The notes below the pieces were generated by a model that was given only the letters and a program-made list of their open reading frames with translations, ran no database searches and was not told the DNA's origin. A DNA stretch of 63,077 nucleotides, the filler included, from an uncultured Methanosarcinales archaeon (lineage in GTDB: Archaea; Nanobdellota; Nanobdellia; Woesearchaeales; B54-G15): NCBI GenBank assembly GCA_964519225.1. It is 18 parts of 18 records of this genome, joined end to end, with 100 filler letters (N's around TTAATTAATTAA, not from the genome) between each part and the next. Parts side by side here need not be neighbours in the genome. Positions count along the whole stretch, not along the records: positions 40,119 to 43,175 come from CAZFJK010000040.1; 17 more parts are not named here. One strand, 5' to 3'. Shown here piece after piece: positions 2,453 to 50,947 of the stretch. Numbering within the stretch: position 1 is the first letter of the stretch; each line of letters starts with the position of its first letter. The translations under genes and the position numbers were made by a program.

Positions 2453-4813
2453 TTAGATTGTTAATTCAGCAAGTTTGCTATACCTCGCTTTTTCAAAATC
2501 CTTTTGGTCAACGCGCAAGAATGTCCATTTTACTCCCGTGCGCTTGCTTACTTCCTCTGCCCAACGCTTGCCCTGTAAATCTTTTGCCGCCACATGAACA
2601 GCTTCTCGTCCTTTTGTCTCAACAACGACCATACCATCTTTTGCGCGAATAATAAAGTCGGGGATATAACGGCGCAAAAATCCATCTTTGGCGATATAAG
2701 GAATTTTGAGGTTAATCGTTCTTGTTTCGTTTTTAATAAAAGCCTCAACATCGTCTGCTCCATCAAGAAATCTCGCAAATTTCGCCTCAAAGTCATTATC
2801 AACCGGCGTAAAGTTCAAAACAGATTTTTGCACCGCCACCGCAAGTTTTATCCACGGAAACGGCTTAATTTCTAATGCCCGCGCTTTCCTCTCCTCCAGT
2901 TTCGCCTCCTCTGATACAATCGTCAGGTTATTGATAGCGTCAACAAAAACGGAAACTATTGCCCCGCGTACTTTGGGATGGTTCAATTTTTTAAGCGTTT
3001 CAAGATTTGCAATATCAACTTTTTTATCAAAAAGATGCTTTGCAATATATTCTTTGACCTGCGGCGCGACTTTGTCAAAGTGGCCCGGTATCCGCGCAAA
3101 CCGCAAAACCGCGTTGGTAATGCTGGCAATATACATCTGCGGATTGTCCGCGTACGGAAACTCCAGCACTTCTTTGGCTTCCTCTTTTTTCGTCAGCATA
3201 TCCACTTTGCGAAGGGTTACATCCCGCGCCTGCAAAGAATCATACTTGAACAACTTTCCGTCCAAAGCGCTTGCCGAAAGCTTTTCAATTCCTTTTACCG
3301 AGTGCGTCAGTCCGCCGGAAAGCATTGGCACTTCTATATCAAATTTTTCTTTGTCTTTCTCAACCTGAATAATTAGCGGCGGGGTGCATGCTTCTTCAAT
3401 GGGGGTAAACTCAATCTTGACTCCCTGCTCTGCTAAGGCTTCTGCAATTAAATCGTGAAATTGCGGGTGTTCAATAACAATAAGTTCCTCTTTGAGTTCC
3501 TGGTCTTCCGGCCACATTCGGCGGAGTCCTCGCCCCAATGTCTGCTCCGGCAAAATTTTGGCTTTTGCGCTATAGGAGCGCAAAGGAACAACAACTACCA
3601 CGTTGCGCACATCCCAGCCCTCGCGAAGCATCAAAACAGAGACAATGGCGTTGTAGGGATTGTCCGGCGAATCAATCTCGCGGGCGGCTTTGCGCGCTAT
3701 CTCCAAATCCTTTTCCGCAATCTGGTCTTTTTTTCTGCCGGAGTGAATGGTCAAAATTTTGCCGCCAAGTTCGGGGAAAGTCGCCAGATACTCTGCCACG
3801 TCATCCGCCGCCTTGTTATCCTCCGTCATCACAAAAAGCACGGGTTTTTTCTCCGTCTTGGTAAGCGCTTTGCGCATCTTCTTCCATTGATTAACTCCAG
3901 CGTCAATTTGAACGCGATATTTTTCCGACGCCTTTTTACTCTCAATTTCGGGCACATTCTCAAGCTCGGCGATCTTGGGCCGCTTGACAATGTTGTCTTC
4001 AATCGCGCTTCCTAAATTGTANNNNNNNNNNNNNNNNNNNNNNNNNNNNNNNNNNNNNNNNNNNNNNNNNNNNNNNNNNNNNNNNNNNNNNNNNNNNNNN
4101 NNNNNNNNNNNNNNNNNNNNNGGCTTTGGCCCTAAAATATCCTGCACTGGATTTTCTTCTTCTCCGTTTTCCCGCTCAACAAATTTCTGCCAGTTCAAAA
4201 GATAAAGAGTTGCCGGCTTGGTGCTTTCCCGTTCCTCATCAGGTCCAATCACATCAAGCTGAAAATCAGAAATCCACTCTGGGGGAAGAAAAGGAAACTT
4301 TTTGAAAATCGCCCCTTCAAAAAATTCGGGATTCTTTGAATCACCCATCAAGCGGTCGAGCACAATCAAGTTTGGCGCTATAAGCAGAAAATCCTTTGTG
4401 AAATCGTCTCGCTTTTCTTTTGTTGTGTTGAAATACGACCATACAATCGCCATCGCCATTACCATTGTTTTACCCGAACCGGTCGCCATTTTGAAAGCAT
4501 ACTTTGCCCATTTGTCTGCACTCGGATCCACCGGCACTCTGGCGTCAAGCTGTTGCGCGAGCTTGTACAAGCTCCGGGCTTCCAAAACTTCATAGCAATA
4601 AATCAAATGCTCAATCGCTTCTCTCTGCGCCCGCCAAAAAGCAAACAAAGTTCCATCTTTCAATTCATGGTTCTCCAAAAACCACCACTCCAAAAGCCGC
4701 CGCGTCGTTTCGCTTGTTCCTTCTTTGTATCCACCCTCGCGCCACGCGGCGACTGCCTGTTGCAGAGCGCGGACGAGAGGAAGTGCCGATTGTTGTTTAT
4801 TATGACCACTCAT
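2453..4813 (-). CDS. res: Type III restriction enzyme Res subunit (SF2 helicase + PD-(D/E)xK nuclease); spans a 100-N gap
   Basis: KMATGSGKT Walker A, MLREGWDV, EQTLGRGLR, C-terminal YIPDF...VVETKG. Confidence 0.9.
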   Translation of the reverse strand: MSGHNKQQSALPLVRALQQAVAAWREGGYKEGTSETTRRLLEWWFLENHELKDGTLFAFWRAQREAIEHLIYCYEVLEARSLYKLAQQLDARVPVDPSADKWAKYAFKMATGSGKTMVMAMAIVWSYFNTTKEKRDDFTKDFLLIAPNLIVLDRLMGDSKNPEFFEGAIFKKFPFLPPEWISDFQLDVIGPDEERESTKPATLYLLNWQKFVERENGEEENPVQDILGPKXXXXXXXXXXXXXXXXXXXXXXXXXXXXXXXXXXYNLGSAIEDNIVKRPKIAELENVPEIESKKASEKYRVQIDAGVNQWKKMRKALTKTEKKPVLFVMTEDNKAADDVAEYLATFPELGGKILTIHSGRKKDQIAEKDLEIARKAAREIDSPDNPYNAIVSVLMLREGWDVRNVVVVVPLRSYSAKAKILPEQTLGRGLRRMWPEDQELKEELIVIEHPQFHDLIAEALAEQGVKIEFTPIEEACTPPLIIQVEKDKEKFDIEVPMLSGGLTHSVKGIEKLSASALDGKLFKYDSLQARDVTLRKVDMLTKKEEAKEVLEFPYADNPQMYIASITNAVLRFARIPGHFDKVAPQVKEYIAKHLFDKKVDIANLETLKKLNHPKVRGAIVSVFVDAINNLTIVSEEAKLEERKARALEIKPFPWIKLAVAVQKSVLNFTPVDNDFEAKFARFLDGADDVEAFIKNETRTINLKIPYIAKDGFLRRYIPDFIIRAKDGMVVVETKGREAVHVAAKDLQGKRWAEEVSKRTGVKWTFLRVDQKDFEKARYSKLAELTI

Positions 4814-40118: not shown

Positions 40119-40629
40119 TCAGGTCGTAGATTTAATGGCTCGTCTTGTAGCACAGCGTCAGGTACAAGAAGAAGCAGAAGAAGAAATCACAGAAGTGGTG
40201 GAAAGAAGTTATTGGCTTACGCCTGTAAAAAGCGATGAAGAGGAGACTGCCGACGAGTGTATTCAACACCTTGTTGGAGAGGAAAAGATCTATGCTTTTG
40301 GAGAACGAACTCCAGGGAGACGGCATATAAAACCCGGAGATTACATTTGTTTTTATTCTGCGGGGAAAGGTGTGGTTGCCCATACCCAAATTGCTTCACA
40401 ACCAGAGCACAAAAAACATCCACGAGTGCGTCATTCTGAGCGATATCCCTGGGTATTCAGTGTAAAAAATGTCCATCTTTACTTAGAAAATCCTGTTGTG
40501 ATAGATGCTGCTTTACGGAGCAAACTGGATGCCTTCAAAAAAAGTGATCCAAATAAAGCATGGGCTTGGTTTGTTCAAGCCACTCGCAAAATAACTGAGC
40601 ATGATTTTAAAATACTCACCAGAGGGTAG
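40119..40629 (+). CDS. Protein with C-terminal EVE/PUA-like domain (5' partial); putative cassette gene
   Basis: YWLTP...IKPGDYICFY..GVVA...ITEHDF; followed by an attC-like site. Confidence 0.7.
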
Positions 40630-40656
40630 CGTGAACAAAATGAAAGTTGCCACTTC

Positions 40657-40744
40657 ATATAACAGAGCGTATCTGGCTTCGTGCCTTCGGCACTTCGCCC
40701 AAATCCTGCTTCGCAGGACTTCAGATACGCTCAAACCGTTAGGC
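40657..40744 (+). other. attC-like recombination site
   Basis: ATATAAC ... GAGCGTATCTG/CAGATACGCTC perfect 11-bp stem, two internal TTCG hairpins ... GTTAGGC. Confidence 0.85.
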
Positions 40745-40775
40745 GACATGGCTATTTAGAAGGAGATGAACGACA

Positions 40776-42137
40776 ATGAATAGGAAGCAAAATCAAAAAC
40801 TAATAAATAATCCACAACAAACATTATTTATGGAACAGACCGCAATTGTGAACATTTATCCACAGGATTCTGTAAGGGAAAAGCTTGAAGCCAAGTTTAA
40901 AAATAAGATGCATGAAGATCTGAGGCTAAGTTCTTCTGTATCTTATGTAGGCAATAAAAAAATTCCTTTCTTAAGGATTTACAGATATAAAGAAGCATTT
41001 GCTTTTAATTTCGTTAAAGACTTTCTTAAGAGATTTGGGGCAGATTCCGATGATTATGTATTTGACCCGTTCTCTGGCTTGGGCACAACTATGTTTACTT
41101 CTATGCTTTCTGGCATCTCATCAATAGGTATCGACAAGTTACCAGTTGCTTATTTCATATCGAAGACTCTTCCCTTATTCTTGTTTTTGAAGGAAAATGA
41201 AATAAAAAAGGTGTGGGAATCTATTAAACCACGCATAAAAACAAGCAAACCTGCAGATGTAGCAATGGATGTTCCTATTATGCAAGTCGCATTTAATGAA
41301 AAAAATCTCATGCTTTTAAGAAAACTAAAATCCACGATTGATAAACTTTCTGAACCTTATAAAGATATTTTCCTTTTGCTCTTCTTTTCAATTCTTGAAG
41401 AATGCAGCTTTACTTCCAAGGATGGTCAGTTTCTAAGGCTCAAACGGAATAAAAAAGTATCCGATCCTATTGAAGCAATGAGTAAGAAGTTGGCACAGGT
41501 AGAAGAGGATATACACCGCATAAAGTTTCTTTATCCCAGCATGTCAATTGATAAAAAAGTTATACCCGACGTCTATCTTGCGGACACACGGGATCTGTCA
41601 AATATAAAATTCAAGCGAAAACCCACAATTATTATTACATCTCCACCTTATGCCAACAGATATGATTATACTAGAACTTACTCTTTAGAGTTGTGTTTTC
41701 ATTTTGTAAAAAATTTTGAAGAACTTAAGGCTATTCGTTTTGGAATTCTGAGATCTCACATAGAGTCAAAAATAAAAAAAGATGAAAAACCACCTCATCC
41801 AGCGGTAGAAGAAGTAATCGATGCTCTTTCAAAAAAGAAATTAAATAATCCTAAAATACCCAATATGATTACTGCTTATTTTGTTGATATGCAGCAAGTC
41901 ATAAAGGAATGGTACAAGGTTTTAGCCCCTGGTGCAAAAGTAGCTATGGTAGTCGATAATGTTAGATTTGAAGGGGAGATGATTCCTGTCGATTTAATTC
42001 TTTCTGAAATGGCTGAAGAAATAGGATTTGAGGTTAAAGAGATTATCACAGCTCGCTATAAAGGAAACAGTTCCCAACAAATGAAAAAATATGGAAAAGT
42101 CCCTGTTAGAGAAAGCATTGTGATATGGGAAAGGTGA
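40776..42137 (+). CDS. Amino (probably N4-cytosine) DNA methyltransferase of a type II R-M system
   Basis: DPFSGLGTT motif I, TSPPY motif IV. Confidence 0.92.
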   Translation: MNRKQNQKLINNPQQTLFMEQTAIVNIYPQDSVREKLEAKFKNKMHEDLRLSSSVSYVGNKKIPFLRIYRYKEAFAFNFVKDFLKRFGADSDDYVFDPFSGLGTTMFTSMLSGISSIGIDKLPVAYFISKTLPLFLFLKENEIKKVWESIKPRIKTSKPADVAMDVPIMQVAFNEKNLMLLRKLKSTIDKLSEPYKDIFLLLFFSILEECSFTSKDGQFLRLKRNKKVSDPIEAMSKKLAQVEEDIHRIKFLYPSMSIDKKVIPDVYLADTRDLSNIKFKRKPTIIITSPPYANRYDYTRTYSLELCFHFVKNFEELKAIRFGILRSHIESKIKKDEKPPHPAVEEVIDALSKKKLNNPKIPNMITAYFVDMQQVIKEWYKVLAPGAKVAMVVDNVRFEGEMIPVDLILSEMAEEIGFEVKEIITARYKGNSSQQMKKYGKVPVRESIVIWER

Positions 42138-43084
42138 TCAAGATGCCATCTGATAAAGAAGAAGAGAGTTGGACGATCGATCAAATCACTAAAAGTGAAT
42201 TTTTCCATCAAAAACTCCATGAATGGGGTCTATTAGAAATTGCTTACGAGCTTGAGGCTATAAAAGGAGAAGAACTTAAATGGGACTTAAAGGAATTGAA
42301 TATAAGTCAAAAAGCTTGGAATAAAATCATTCACAGAGGAATTAAGCCTGTAAGAGTATTTAGCCATCCTGAGGTTTTAAAAGGCAATCCAAAGAGGGTG
42401 AGCTACTATAGAATGCTTGCAATGGTTTCTCAAAAGTCGATGTCAAAAGTTGGCTTGACTGTTAATGGTTATGAAGATGGACGTAAGAGTTTTGATGATA
42501 ACACAGCTTTAGCTGTATCAAAGCATCTAAACAAAATTATAAGCATTCTTATAGAACATGACGAGAAAATAGATGCGAGAGAATTTGATCTGTGGCGTGG
42601 AATGACTGCTGGCTCTCAAGCCCAAGGTTCTTGGCAAAATACAAAAGGTGATCGAGCAGAGGTTGTTATTAAGGAGTTGATTGAAAGAAGAATCAGAGAA
42701 AAAGGGTTGATAATCAAGGAAACCATTCATGGGAAGAGTGAAAAATTTGAATTAAAGGATGGACGAATATTAGTAATGGGTAGTGAGCCTGACATTGGAA
42801 TATATAAAAACGATACAATTCAAATTGCTGTGGAAATAAAAGGGGGTATTGATCCAGCGGGAGTGCTTGAACGATTTGGAGCAGCACTAAAGAGTTTAAG
42901 AAGAGCAAAGCAGGAAAACCCTCAATCAGTTACGATATTGATTATGCAAGGTGTGTCCCTCACTTCCAAAGCTGAAGAAGAAATCAGTAAGAGCAAGGCA
43001 ACCATAGACTACTTCTTTACGATTGAAGATATAATAGGTAATGAGGATTTAAGGAAGCGACTGTTTGAGGTGCTGAATATATGA
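42125..43084 (+). CDS. Type II restriction endonuclease, XcyI-like
   Basis: YYRMLAMVSQK, GSWQN..G, SEPDI...EIKGG.D PD-(D/E)xK motif; coupled to the MTase. Confidence 0.8.
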   Translation: MGKVIKMPSDKEEESWTIDQITKSEFFHQKLHEWGLLEIAYELEAIKGEELKWDLKELNISQKAWNKIIHRGIKPVRVFSHPEVLKGNPKRVSYYRMLAMVSQKSMSKVGLTVNGYEDGRKSFDDNTALAVSKHLNKIISILIEHDEKIDAREFDLWRGMTAGSQAQGSWQNTKGDRAEVVIKELIERRIREKGLIIKETIHGKSEKFELKDGRILVMGSEPDIGIYKNDTIQIAVEIKGGIDPAGVLERFGAALKSLRRAKQENPQSVTILIMQGVSLTSKAEEEISKSKATIDYFFTIEDIIGNEDLRKRLFEVLNI

Positions 43085-43112
43085 TTAGGGAAAATTATAG
43101 TCCAGCCACGTC

Positions 43113-43175
43113 GCCTAACAGCGGACATACGGCTACGGTGCTTCGCACCTCCGCCCAAATTCGGCAGAGCCGAAC
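43113..43175 (+). other. attC-like site (truncated by the contig end)
   Basis: GCCTAAC inverse core complementary to GTTAGGC at 40738; same GGCT.CG-hairpin-CGCCCAAAT-hairpin layout as 40657-40744. Confidence 0.8.
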
Positions 43176-48785: not shown

Positions 48786-49814
48786 AAAATCGAAAAAGAT
48801 AATGGGAGAATTAAAGTTTTCTTTCCATACAGTCCAGTATATATTACAAAAATAAAAACTATCAGAGGATATAAGTGGCATTCTGATGGAAAATACTGGA
48901 GCATTCCGTATTCTGAACTTGAAAATCTTCTGTCAGCATTTGATAGAAAAAAGATTGAGGTAGATGCATCTGTCTGGCTTTATGATCTGAGAAAAGAACT
49001 GATGGCAAGAAAGTACAGCAGGAGAACTATAAAGCTTTATCTGCATTACAATGAAGGATTCCTGAAATTCAGCAATAAAACACCTTATCAGGTATCAAAT
49101 GAAGATGTTAGGGATTATCTGTATCATCTGGCAGAAAGGAAGAATGCTTCGGCATCAACTTTAAATATAGCAATAAATGCACTGAAGTTTTACTATGGTG
49201 AGGTTCTAAAGCGAAGATTTGCTTATGGGATAAGGAGACCAAAGAAAGACAAAAAGCTGCCGATTGTTTTGAGTTAGGAGGAAGTTTCAAGGATTTTATC
49301 TTCGTTTAACAACATTAAGCACAGGCTGATTCTGATGCTCATGTATTCTGCCGGTTTGAGAGTTGGAGAAGTTGTAAAGCTTAAAATCGAAGACATTGAT
49401 GTGAAGAGAAAATTGATCAGAATAAGGAGTGGAAAAGGTAGGAAGGATCGATATACAATCTTTTCTGAGATTATGTTAAAAACATTTAGAGAATATGTTG
49501 AGAAGTACAAGCCAGAAAAGTGGCTGTTTCCGGGACAGAGAAAGGATAGACATATAACAACAAGGACTGTGCAGAAGATATTTGATAATGCATGTAGAAA
49601 AGCAGGGATAAGGAAAGAGGCTACCGTTCATTCCTTGAGGCATTTATTCGCAACTCATTTACTCGAAAGTGGAGTTGATCTGAGATACATTCAGGAGTTG
49701 CTTGGTCACAAAAGTTCAAAAACAACAGAGATTTATACTCACGTTGCAATGAAAGATTTGAGAAAAATAAGAAGTCCAATAGATATGATGGTTAAAGGTG
49801 AAAAAGATGAATGA
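48786..49814 (+). pseudogene. Integron-like tyrosine recombinase (HARP-like + SAM-like + catalytic domains) with one in-frame TAG at 49275-49277; 5' partial
   Basis: Continuous frame: FPYSP..IKTIRGYKW..KYWSIP, RKYSRRTIKLY, KLPIVLS*EEV, YSAGLRVGE, GKGRKDR, HSLRH, LGH, IYTHV. Confidence 0.9.
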
Positions 49815-49927: not shown

Positions 49928-49977
49928 TTAGGAATATTTAAAATCTGGGAAGAAGTTAAAACAGAGAGGTGAAGAGC

Positions 49978-50778
49978 ATGGAAATAAAAATCATCAAGAT
50001 AAAAGCTAAAAAAGCTTTCACAAAAACAAAAATTCCTGGAGCAGATTGGGTTATCAACCAGTACGTTGGTTGCCAACATGGATGTAAGTATTGCTATGCC
50101 AAATTCATGTGTAAATGGTATAACTATGGAGAATGGGGAAGTTGGATTGTTGTTAAAGAAAACCTCCCAGAACTTGTTAAAAAAGAAAATGTTAAAGGAG
50201 AAGTTTATATGAGTAGCGTTAGCGATCCGTATCAACCGATTGAGGAAAAATTAGAGCTTACGAGAAATGTTTTGAAAAACATGAATAGAAACATCAAATT
50301 AGGAATCCTAACAAAGTCTGATTCAGTTTTAAGAGATATAGACATTTTTAAAGAGTTTAAAGATATAGAAATAGGTTTAACGATTAACGGTTTTGATGGA
50401 TTTGTGAAAAAGAAGATAGAGCCCTTTTCTCCAAGTAATGAGAAAAGAATAGAAGCACTAAAATCGCTTCATGAGCATGGTATTAAAAACTACGCATTTA
50501 TTTCACCAATAATTCCAAATCTGATCGATGTTGAGGAGTTAATCAGAGAAACAAAAAGTTTCACAGATTTTTACTGGTTTGAGTTTTTGAATTTAAGAGC
50601 AAGTGGAAAAGAGTTTAGAGAATGGTTAAAGCAAAACTATCCTGAAAGCTATGAAATAGTTTCTGATAAAGTTAAAGCGGAAAAGTATGCGAAAGATGTT
50701 ATGAAAATTATAAAAGATAATAACATACAAGTTAGAGGTGTTTGTATGCATTATCCAAAAATTATGGCGGTGAAATAA
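49978..50778 (+). CDS. SPL-like radical SAM protein (cassette gene)
   Basis: NQYVGCQHGCKYCYA, SSVSDPYQPIE, ILTKS; GAGGTGA RBS. Confidence 0.9.
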   Translation: MEIKIIKIKAKKAFTKTKIPGADWVINQYVGCQHGCKYCYAKFMCKWYNYGEWGSWIVVKENLPELVKKENVKGEVYMSSVSDPYQPIEEKLELTRNVLKNMNRNIKLGILTKSDSVLRDIDIFKEFKDIEIGLTINGFDGFVKKKIEPFSPSNEKRIEALKSLHEHGIKNYAFISPIIPNLIDVEELIRETKSFTDFYWFEFLNLRASGKEFREWLKQNYPESYEIVSDKVKAEKYAKDVMKIIKDNNIQVRGVCMHYPKIMAVK

Positions 50779-50859
50779 AATGAAAAAATCTGATTTAACT
50801 AAAACTTTCAGTGGCGTGCGGAACTCTTCGCCTGCTTTCGCAGGCTCGCCATTCGGGTC

Positions 50860-50947
50860 TGCTAACAAGCGGGTATCAGGCTTTGTTTTATCTGCCCAAA
50901 TTCCTCGCTATGCTCGGAACTTCGGATACCCTCAAAAAAATCATAAC
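50860..50947 (+). other. attC-like site with degenerate core
   Basis: TGCTAAC, GGGTATC/GATACCC stem, GCCCAAATTCC..GGAACTTC, ends ATCATAAC in place of GTTATAA; a next ORF starts at 50967. Confidence 0.7.

Follow-up and report, generated by a model that had tools for sequence, protein, structure and literature searches.

The window analysed here, a 63-kb stretch of DNA, is a chain of 19 small contigs of the metagenome-assembled genome (MAG) GCA_964519225.1 from an uncultured archaeon of the order Woesearchaeales; the contigs are joined by N/TTAATTAATTAA linkers, and the window is not one molecule. One of them, contig C40 (40119..43175; 3,057 bp), carries the genes of a type II DNA methyltransferase and an XcyI-family type II restriction endonuclease between two attC-like hairpin sites. 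This stretch is probably a mobile integron-type gene cassette in a fragment of a cassette array, moved by a recombinase of an Xer-like clade rather than by an integron integrase (IntI). The cassette unit recurs elsewhere with other neighbours and the same boundary, and its ends pair as expected of a circle that was once closed across its own site.

Cassette ends and hairpin sites on contig C40

Site 1 (88 nt, 40657..40744, plus strand) is complete and forms an imperfect palindrome in the order ATATAAC-A-(11-nt stem arm)...(11-nt stem arm)-AAACC-GTTAGGC, with the boxes R'' ATATAAC at 40657-40663 and R' GTTAGGC at 40738-40744, stem arms at 40665-40675 and 40722-40732, the spacer AAACC, and two inner hairpins around CGCCCAAAT. 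Its R'' departs from RYYYAAC at one base. Folded as single-stranded DNA, the minus strand gave -25.5 kcal/mol (z -5.15; none of 200 shuffles did as well) and the plus strand -22.8 kcal/mol (z -3.91). Site 2 (43113..43175, plus strand), the cassette's own site, begins with R'' GCCTAAC (43113-43119) and the stem arm GCGGACATACG (43121-43131) and is cut by the contig end; complete homologues are present in loci L088, L089 and L093 of the comparison below. A sequence-only reading of the window had placed the methyltransferase and the XcyI-like endonuclease between two attC-like elements, and this was borne out, with one complete and one truncated hairpin. No integrase is encoded on the contig, as that reading had also stated.

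The left cassette end (40738..40753, plus strand), recognised by complementarity and by a homology breakpoint, consists of the crossover GTT and an extension that pairs with the right end clamp AGCCACGTCGCCTAAC (43104..43119, plus strand), which includes R'' of the cassette's own site. The two 16-mers are complementary at 15 of 16 positions, the value given beforehand, and this was the best pairing between the two flank windows; the best in 300 mononucleotide shuffles was 13/16, none reaching 14 or more. Delimited by homology and by Logan contigs, the cassette runs from the TT of GTT to past the contig end (40739..43175, plus strand), opens with TTAGGCGAC and has a full length of about 2.46 kb by homology with L088 and L089. 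Measured as a cluster of attC sites lacking integrases (CALIN; at least two attC less than 4 kb apart, no integrase near), C40 has two sites 2.37 kb apart, of which the second is cut, on a contig of only 3 kb.

Restriction-modification genes and the upstream ORF

The methyltransferase (453 aa, 40776..42137, plus strand) was assigned by Pfam (N6_N4_Mtase, PF01555, 50.2 bits, cut-off 26.7), by PADLOC (MTase_II, 3.6e-87) and by its motifs DPFSGLG (residues 97-103) and SPPY (residues 289-292), the latter being typical of N4-cytosine methyltransferases. The endonuclease (319 aa, 42125..43084, plus strand) was assigned by the same means (RE_XcyI, PF09571, 68 bits, cut-off 25; REase_II, 1.3e-7; motif PD...EIK, residues 222-239). 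Its start overlaps the methyltransferase stop by 13 nt and its stop lies 28 nt 5' of site 2. With adjacent genes and catalytic motifs in both products, the two are predicted to form a type II restriction-modification (R-M) pair. In a sequence search of the PDB, the methyltransferase gave one weak match (2ZIE) and the endonuclease nothing useful, so that neither had a sequence-related solved structure in that search. A GGAG ribosome-binding site lies at about 40762, 5' of the methyltransferase; beside it, inside the cassette (40753-40775) and 18-23 nt 5' of the methyltransferase start, is an A/T-rich TATTTA box. The R-M cassette may carry its own archaeal-type promoter.

An open reading frame (ORF) precedes site 1 (40120..40629, plus strand) and is the whole or the 3' part of the upstream cassette's gene, its frame being open back to the contig start; an ORF scan called it at 40135-40629. 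It had been read as EVE-like and as ending just before an attC-like site. The position holds, the stop being 27 nt 5' of site 1, but the EVE score (20.3 bits, E 5.9e-4) is under the gathering cut-off of 23 for Pfam PF01878; the ORF matches PRK00809 (E 3.3e-5), is weakly EVE/PUA-like and had zero PADLOC matches.

Recurrence of the cassette with other neighbours

Of 3,095 candidates, 1,050 were related to the endonuclease at E ≤ 1e-3; the best 120 were 67-100% identical and mostly on short contigs. For the comparison of loci, 160 were used, 80 from species genomes and 80 from metagenomes, including the duplicates L020 and L090 (identical), L086 and L087 (nearly so) and L008, L096 and L097 (likewise nearly so). 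The methylase stood directly upstream of the endonuclease in 153 of them.

By blastn, homology to C40 started with the G of GTTAGGC (window 40738, C40 position 620) in L086, L087, L089 and L091, and 5 nt further in, at position 625, in L088. The opening of the unit at GTT that had been read from C40 was thereby recovered in four of five loci. The sequences 5' of the breakpoint were unrelated, each ending in a different hairpin, with four kinds in the five loci (L086 and L087 share one). Downstream, homology passed the endonuclease into a hairpin that is complete in L087, L088, L089, L091 and L093; the homologous sites read GCCTAAC-A-stem...stem-AGAAC-GTTATAC or close variants and were followed by different genes. 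Rather than keeping the same neighbours and lacking boundaries, the close relatives had different upstream neighbours, the GTT boundary and the downstream hairpin. End-to-end complementarity was also present in L086, L087, L089 and L091, and a compensatory change was observed in the ends, GGCT/AGCC in C40 corresponding to GGTT/AACC in L086/L087. In L089, genes for a cupin-type glucose-6-phosphate isomerase, a 3,4-dihydroxy-2-butanone 4-phosphate (DHBP) synthase and a cytidylyltransferase lie 5' of the cassette (L089:611-2473); since these are housekeeping-type genes, the L089 array is taken to be chromosomal.

At 70-96% protein identity, the cassette was found in MAGs labelled Thaumarchaeota, anaerobic methanotrophic archaea (ANME)/Methanosarcinales, Alkanophaga, Aminicenantes, Thermotogota and others. 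Among the 127 loci with 120 nt of both flanks, GTT...AAC end pairing of at least 9 nt was present in nine, three of which (L041, L067, L109) differ markedly in their end sequences. The remaining 118 were without end pairing; most of them are pairs of 50-60% identity from Anaerolineae and cyanobacteria. With paired ends in some loci and none in others, the gene pair is known here in two forms, a cassette and an ordinary chromosomal pair. A locus of Candidatus Alkanophaga (L008) has a decayed downstream site, with GCCTAGA and CATTAAG in place of GCCTAAC and GTTA, which was also seen in the metagenome contigs L096 and L097 (at about 6988-7063 in L008/L096 and 5181-5255 in L097); in all three the R-M pair is without the upstream GTT boundary. 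To judge from these sequences, the pair there looks like a cassette that has become fixed.

Near-identical DNA was present in 20 runs from 12 studies of hydrothermal-vent and marine-sediment metagenomes, and Logan contigs of four runs from four studies (X1, X2, X3, X7) were compared with C40. Those carrying the R-M genes begin at 40737 and end at 43134-43137 in X1, X2 and X3, that is, in three studies; the assembly graph branches at the predicted cassette boundaries. Summed depths of the upstream ORF and the R-M genes were about 111 vs 9 (X1), 8.7 vs 6 (X2), 0 vs 8-10 (X3) and 291 vs 5 (X7), and from this uncoupling it follows that the two cassettes travel separately. The bin containing the first hairpin (40629-40730) had summed depths of 12,738, 1,246, 1,350 and 30,582 in the four runs, vs 5-10 for the R-M genes; this depth, together with many loose ends at the hairpin, marks it as one of a highly repeated family with many neighbours. 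Joints skipping 2,364-2,434 nt between sites were considered as excision products and rejected, because other copies of the repeat would give the same.

The extreme repetition of the hairpins would also suit terminators or repeats resembling repetitive extragenic palindromes (REP) or miniature inverted-repeat transposable elements (MITE) around an ordinary, immobile chromosomal R-M island, as would their GC-richness (0.52 in the hairpins vs 0.36 in the genes) and their position after stop codons. Most of the more distant homologues (about 55% identity, Anaerolineae and cyanobacteria) lack the flanks, and only nine of the 127 loci have paired ends, as such an island would predict. It would, however, leave the sharp homology breakpoint at GTT with different neighbours and the end complementarity with its compensatory change without explanation, as well as the single orientation of the sites and the link of arrays to a recombinase in relatives (below); no T run follows the hairpin 3'. 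We therefore regard immobility as very improbable.

The hairpin site family

Twelve sites with spans of 72-94 nt were aligned. Their consensus fold has a 10-bp stem (10-11 bp), with compensatory changes in 8 of 11 predicted pairs, and the conserved unpaired motifs GGCT, CCAAAT and ACTTC around two variable inner hairpins. A covariance model built on this alignment (R1) matched the 160 loci 30 times (E ≤ 1), always on the strand that encodes the endonuclease. Within 200 nt, a match follows the endonuclease in 13 loci and precedes the methylase in 6. Site 1 scores 85.8 bits with R1, although it is among the sequences from which the model was built. The direction of the genes and the left breakpoint, which falls sharply at the upstream R', were used to assign the top strand, because the opposite choice would move the upstream hairpin body with the genes, which is not so in four of five close contexts.

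Measured against attC, the family has end boxes that fit RYYYAAC/GTTRRRY and an imperfect palindrome after an ORF whose length is within the 57-141 nt of attC (site 1 with 88 nt; site 2 starting GCCTAAC; homologous sites ending in GTTATAC or GTTATAT), a second inverted repeat (L''/L') with conserved pairing, and a boundary at which the unit opens at G|TT, has varied neighbours and pairs its 5' end with its own R''. The stem differs: it has no bulge, and its unpaired spacer measures 1 nt on the R'' side and 5 nt on the R' side. In canonical attC sites as described in Nivina 2016 (PMC5027507), both arms have an unpaired spacer of 5-6 nt, and the extrahelical bases belong to the R''-L'' arm, where they face the AAC of the bottom strand that is recombined; the 5-nt spacer of the present family lies on the opposite side from these extrahelical bases, the canonical layout being taken from description only.

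These likenesses and differences bear on whether the stretch is a classical integron cassette, with ordinary attC sites and a canonical IntI on an unassembled or unbinned contig, in which case C40 may be bacterial. The fit of the R''/R' boxes, the boundary at GTT and an attC-like length and position would be expected of such a cassette, and bacterial MAGs contain the same cassette, one from Aminicenantes (L020) and another from Chloroflexota (L024), whose R1 site scores 54 bits. The stem without bulged bases and the 1-nt/5-nt spacer, on the side opposite from the canonical extrahelical bases (PMC5027507), would not be expected. From the available text of Ghaly 2022 (PMC9668308), IntI1 recombines 8 of 9 tested archaeal attC sites, and most archaeal arrays are without IntI, which is put down there to MAG fragmentation. 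In the material studied here, no recombinase reached the TIGR02249 cut-off in the MAG, in five array-bearing relatives or in five genomes with the R-M pair, and the arrays of relatives do adjoin a recombinase, which is Xer-like. A classical origin is thus unlikely, yet it keeps a real share of the probability.

Related arrays carry a second R-M pair (PF01555 with MvaI/BcnI), a DUF5615 protein, a NucS-like nuclease, a TIR protein and a HicB-like protein, and L100 has a NACHT-HEAT protein beside the R-M pair. In the sequence-only reading C40 was taken to be part of a defence-rich array; related arrays with a second R-M pair, TIR and NACHT proteins agree with this, but C40 itself shows two cassettes only. 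In L105 (7369-10904), two family hairpins lie downstream of the XcyI-like pair; around them are an unrelated PF01555 and MvaI/BcnI pair, a DUF5615 protein and a NucS/YhcG-like nuclease.

At E ≤ 1e-3, R1 matches were found in 22 of 100 genomes of the same order, some of them inside contigs of 135-513 kb, and from these positions deep in long contigs the family is judged to be resident in this archaeal order. Two degenerate copies were found in the MAG. One lies on contig C43 (50860..50946, plus strand; 39.7 bits with R1, no GTT at the R' end) and starts 82 nt after a 269-aa ORF (window 49969-50946); ORF and hairpin together look, from their sequence, like a former cassette that was fixed. The other lies on contig C44 (52080..52174, minus strand; 30.9 bits) and has an intact R' GTTATAC and a decayed left arm. 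A strict regular-expression and fold scan of the MAG for RYYYAAC...GTTRRRY found nothing, being too strict in that site 1 itself departs by one base; a looser scan for TAAC...GTTA with a perfect stem found C40 only and missed the degenerate copies; and blastn-short of the two sites against the MAG gave chance 12-16-mers only.

Xer-like recombinases beside the arrays of relatives

In 11 of the 22 genomes with R1 matches, a tyrosine recombinase was located within 10 kb on the same contig (0.24-6.9 kb), and all 11 were divergent from the hairpin sites, which is the classical integron layout. Unfiltered or targeted scans gave three further cases (G029 at 30.8 bits; G057 and G040 at 19-20 bits). 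Arrays of three to five same-strand hairpins beside a divergent Xer-like recombinase were seen in L192 (G018:C13:1-10000), L193 and L191/L196; some inter-site ORFs of L192 are on the opposite strand (1075-1826, 2977-3777).

A maximum-likelihood tree was calculated from 46 recombinases with three bacterial Xer proteins as outgroup; fragments of less than 200 aa (L217, L232, L220/L223, L224) and the G003 fragment were left out. An array-linked clade (clade A; UFBoot 97, SH-aLRT 93) contained 21 rows, of which 11 are array-adjacent, 10 have little upstream flank (less than 200 nt in 7; 0.9-1.8 kb and no R1 match in 3) and none is classed as without an array. The recombinase at L192:7977-8756 is one of its members. 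Its sister group (89/78) contained 18 recombinases without an array in the scanned flanks, together with the enzymes of the MAG contigs C12 and C43. Five genomes (G006, G007, G018, G019 and G061) have one enzyme of each clade.

The array-side enzyme of G018 was closest to XerA of P. abyssi (4A8E, 160 bits) and aligned to VchIntIA (2A3V) in two pieces, with 16 residues vs 62 in the integron integrase. The IntI-specific domain in VchIntIA contacts extrahelical bases. Of a complete integron, taken as an IntI with an insert near patch III, an attI and an array, the integrase with this insert was missing from the MAG, the five relatives and the five genomes with the R-M pair that were searched, positions of about 181-236 of TIGR02249 being unmatched.

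All 18 clade A members with enough upstream flank are preceded, 69-144 nt from their start codons, by a conserved site, AATTG...(T/A)AAC-A-NN-TATTAA, together with a small hairpin (e.g. L212:1749-1819 and L218:35-105). In array orientation this site ends in GTTATAC, which is also the R' most often seen in the hairpins, and on this ground it is a candidate attI, an operator being the other candidate function. Several contigs end within 0-60 nt of this site.

The kinship with XerA raises the alternative of an Xer/dif-type module, in which short double-stranded sites at the cassette ends would be recombined, as at the pdif sites of Acinetobacter plasmids, and the hairpin would be incidental. Besides the match of array-side recombinases to XerA (4A8E, 160 bits), enzymes of the MAG score above the NF040815 cut-off, and AAC usually stands directly before R', which creates a short palindrome, AACGTT. 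The pdif modules have 28-bp sites with 11-bp arms and a 6-bp spacer, in alternating orientation. Here, the ends are about 70 nt apart with a conserved, covarying hairpin between them instead of a 6-8 bp spacer, the covariation of the stem indicates selection on folding, and the array sites are all in one orientation. A module of this type is accordingly held to be improbable.

Recombinases of the MAG and proposed mechanism

The MAG (868,879 bases, 53 contigs) has a completeness of 97% and a contamination of 1.6%. It has five matches to the tyrosine-recombinase catalytic domain. One of these enzymes, at 48786 on C43 (48786..49814, plus strand), had been named in the sequence-only reading, where its linkage to the array was given as unproven. 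The enzyme is not an integron integrase. Its best family is XerA_Arch (252.4, cut-off 220), it scores 235.4 with TIGR02249 (cut-off 265), which it matches only at 2-180 and 231-315 so that the IntI-specific insert is absent, and it falls outside the array-linked clade in the tree. The ORF runs off the contig start, has an N-terminal extension of roughly 64 aa and contains an in-frame TAG (49275-49277) where relatives read on (LPIVLS*EEV), reflecting either a pseudogene or a sequencing error. A broken tyrosine-recombinase remnant is located on C44 (51151..51696, plus strand), its frame interrupted by stops and a frameshift ahead of the region of the catalytic tyrosine; the decayed C44 hairpin lies 0.4 kb from it on the opposite strand. 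A loose pattern for the candidate attI gave chance-looking matches only in the MAG. Two contig ends carry tRNA-like sequence, archaeal in look by eye.

In the mechanism we propose, a tyrosine recombinase would cut the folded single-stranded site at GTT/AAC and free the cassette as a circle, which would then be re-inserted at a platform site. A classical IntI is probably not the enzyme involved, a member of the distinct Xer-like clade without the IntI-specific insert being more likely; the C40 cassette would be an orphan (CALIN-like) fragment which, if it moves at all, is mobilised in trans. While resident, the pair would act as an ordinary type II R-M system, the methylase (of the N4-C or N6-A class) protecting host DNA and the translationally coupled PD...ExK endonuclease cutting unmodified incoming DNA; the pair may also stabilise the array through post-segregational killing.

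Several observations weigh against this reading. C40 was placed in the MAG by binning alone (GC 0.378 vs about 0.36 for the MAG); when contig ends were compared within the MAG, none overlapped C40, and there is no physical tie of C40 to the MAG, to any array or to any recombinase. The closest named homologues of the endonuclease are from unrelated taxa (Aminicenantes 89%, Candidatus Alkanophaga 86%, Nitrosotalea 79%), and none of 100 relatives from the same order yielded the endonuclease, an absence which fits an accessory cassette and equally a misbinned contig. In a tblastn search with the C43 recombinase against the 160 loci (flanks of up to 6 kb), three weak matches were obtained, the best at E 5.7e-4 and none at E ≤ 1e-5; no locus therefore links the cassette to any integrase, the Xer-like kind or, as would be needed for a classical integron, IntI. 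The MAG has no recombinase of the array-linked clade despite its 97% completeness, and its two extra hairpin copies are degenerate and not divergent from the adjoining recombinase genes. CCCGGG occurs 31 times in the MAG vs 28.5 expected and is not avoided, so that there is no sign of XcyI-like restriction pressure. The downstream stem of L087 and L091 differs from that of C40, L089, L093, L096 and (by one change) L088, which is unexpected under a simple one-crossover model. As to the enzyme, the array-adjacent L205 and L207 fall in the sister, housekeeping clade; 3 of 14 clade A members with at least 0.9 kb of upstream flank (L210, L211, L216) have no R1 match; 2 of the 11 R1 matches of clade A are weak (19-20 bits); and the association counts are not independent, the relatives being kin and the model having been built from the same family. 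Recombination itself we infer from sequence, and the link to an enzyme from relatives.

With these points taken together with the evidence above, a mobile integron-type cassette served by the Xer-like clade is still the probable nature of the C40 stretch. A wider proposal, to which we give about an even chance, is that the hairpin family represents an undescribed integron-like branch of small-genome archaea, with a dedicated Xer-like integrase lacking the IntI-specific domain, sites without extrahelical bases (one-sided spacer) and an attI in the form of a small hairpin ending in GTTATAC.

Comparison with known systems

An R-M pair as an integron-type cassette is a known kind of system and expected biology. 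Archaeal MAGs hold integron cassettes and integrase-less attC clusters, with R-M functions accounting for 8.3% of the archaeal cassettes that are annotated (Ghaly 2022, Sci Adv, PMC9668308). In the parts of that study available here, the integrase is defined by the IntI-specific domain and six IntIs are recorded, none from Woesearchaeales; Data S1 includes six MAGs of that order, their attCs numbering 2-12 and their IntIs 0; neither the motif GCCCAAAT nor XcyI/PF09571 occurs in its supplement text. C40 and its relatives resemble these archaeal integrons and CALINs (PMC9668308) in the tandem same-strand cassettes, the folded AAC/GTT sites and the prevalence of clusters without an integrase. They differ in that the arrays of same-order relatives adjoin an Xer-like clade without the IntI-specific domain and in that the hairpin family is without bulged bases. 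In the accessible portion of a review of archaeal tyrosine recombinases, integrons are mentioned in passing only, and in the full-text literature, which included few subscription journals, no description was found of attC-type arrays served by an Xer-like recombinase in Archaea.

Found in MAGs of both Archaea and Bacteria, the 2.4-kb cassette provides a concrete example of a defence system moving between domains, and its bounding sites appear, in this order, to be served by an Xer-like recombinase that current integron finders do not count as an integrase. If this is true, archaeal integrase-less clusters would be complete platforms of a new variant, which would explain why nearly all published archaeal attC clusters seem to be without an integrase; defence cassettes would pass between Archaea and Bacteria via two kinds of enzyme; and the need for the IntI-specific domain in folded-site recombination would become directly testable.

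Type II restriction systems have been described in bacterial integron cassettes (Darracq et al. 2024 preprint, 10.1101/2024.07.02.601686, in its available part). The defence cassettes of those sedentary chromosomal integrons are IntI-dependent and of the Vibrio type, unlike the C40 cassette, which is also large in comparison (about 2.46 kb with two full-size genes) and occurs in archaeal and bacterial MAGs. With the XcyI-family endonucleases and their N6/N4 methyltransferases, the C40 pair shares a family match above the cut-off, the upstream position of the methylase and the PD...ExK and SPPY motifs; it departs from them in that the match to the XcyI model is modest (68 bits) and that CCCGGG, examined as a hint of specificity, is not depleted. 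With XerA/dif dimer resolution, finally, the array-side recombinases share their XerA-like sequence and length, whereas clade A is separate from the housekeeping copy of the same genomes and its presumed sites are hairpins of 72-94 nt, not a 28-bp dif.

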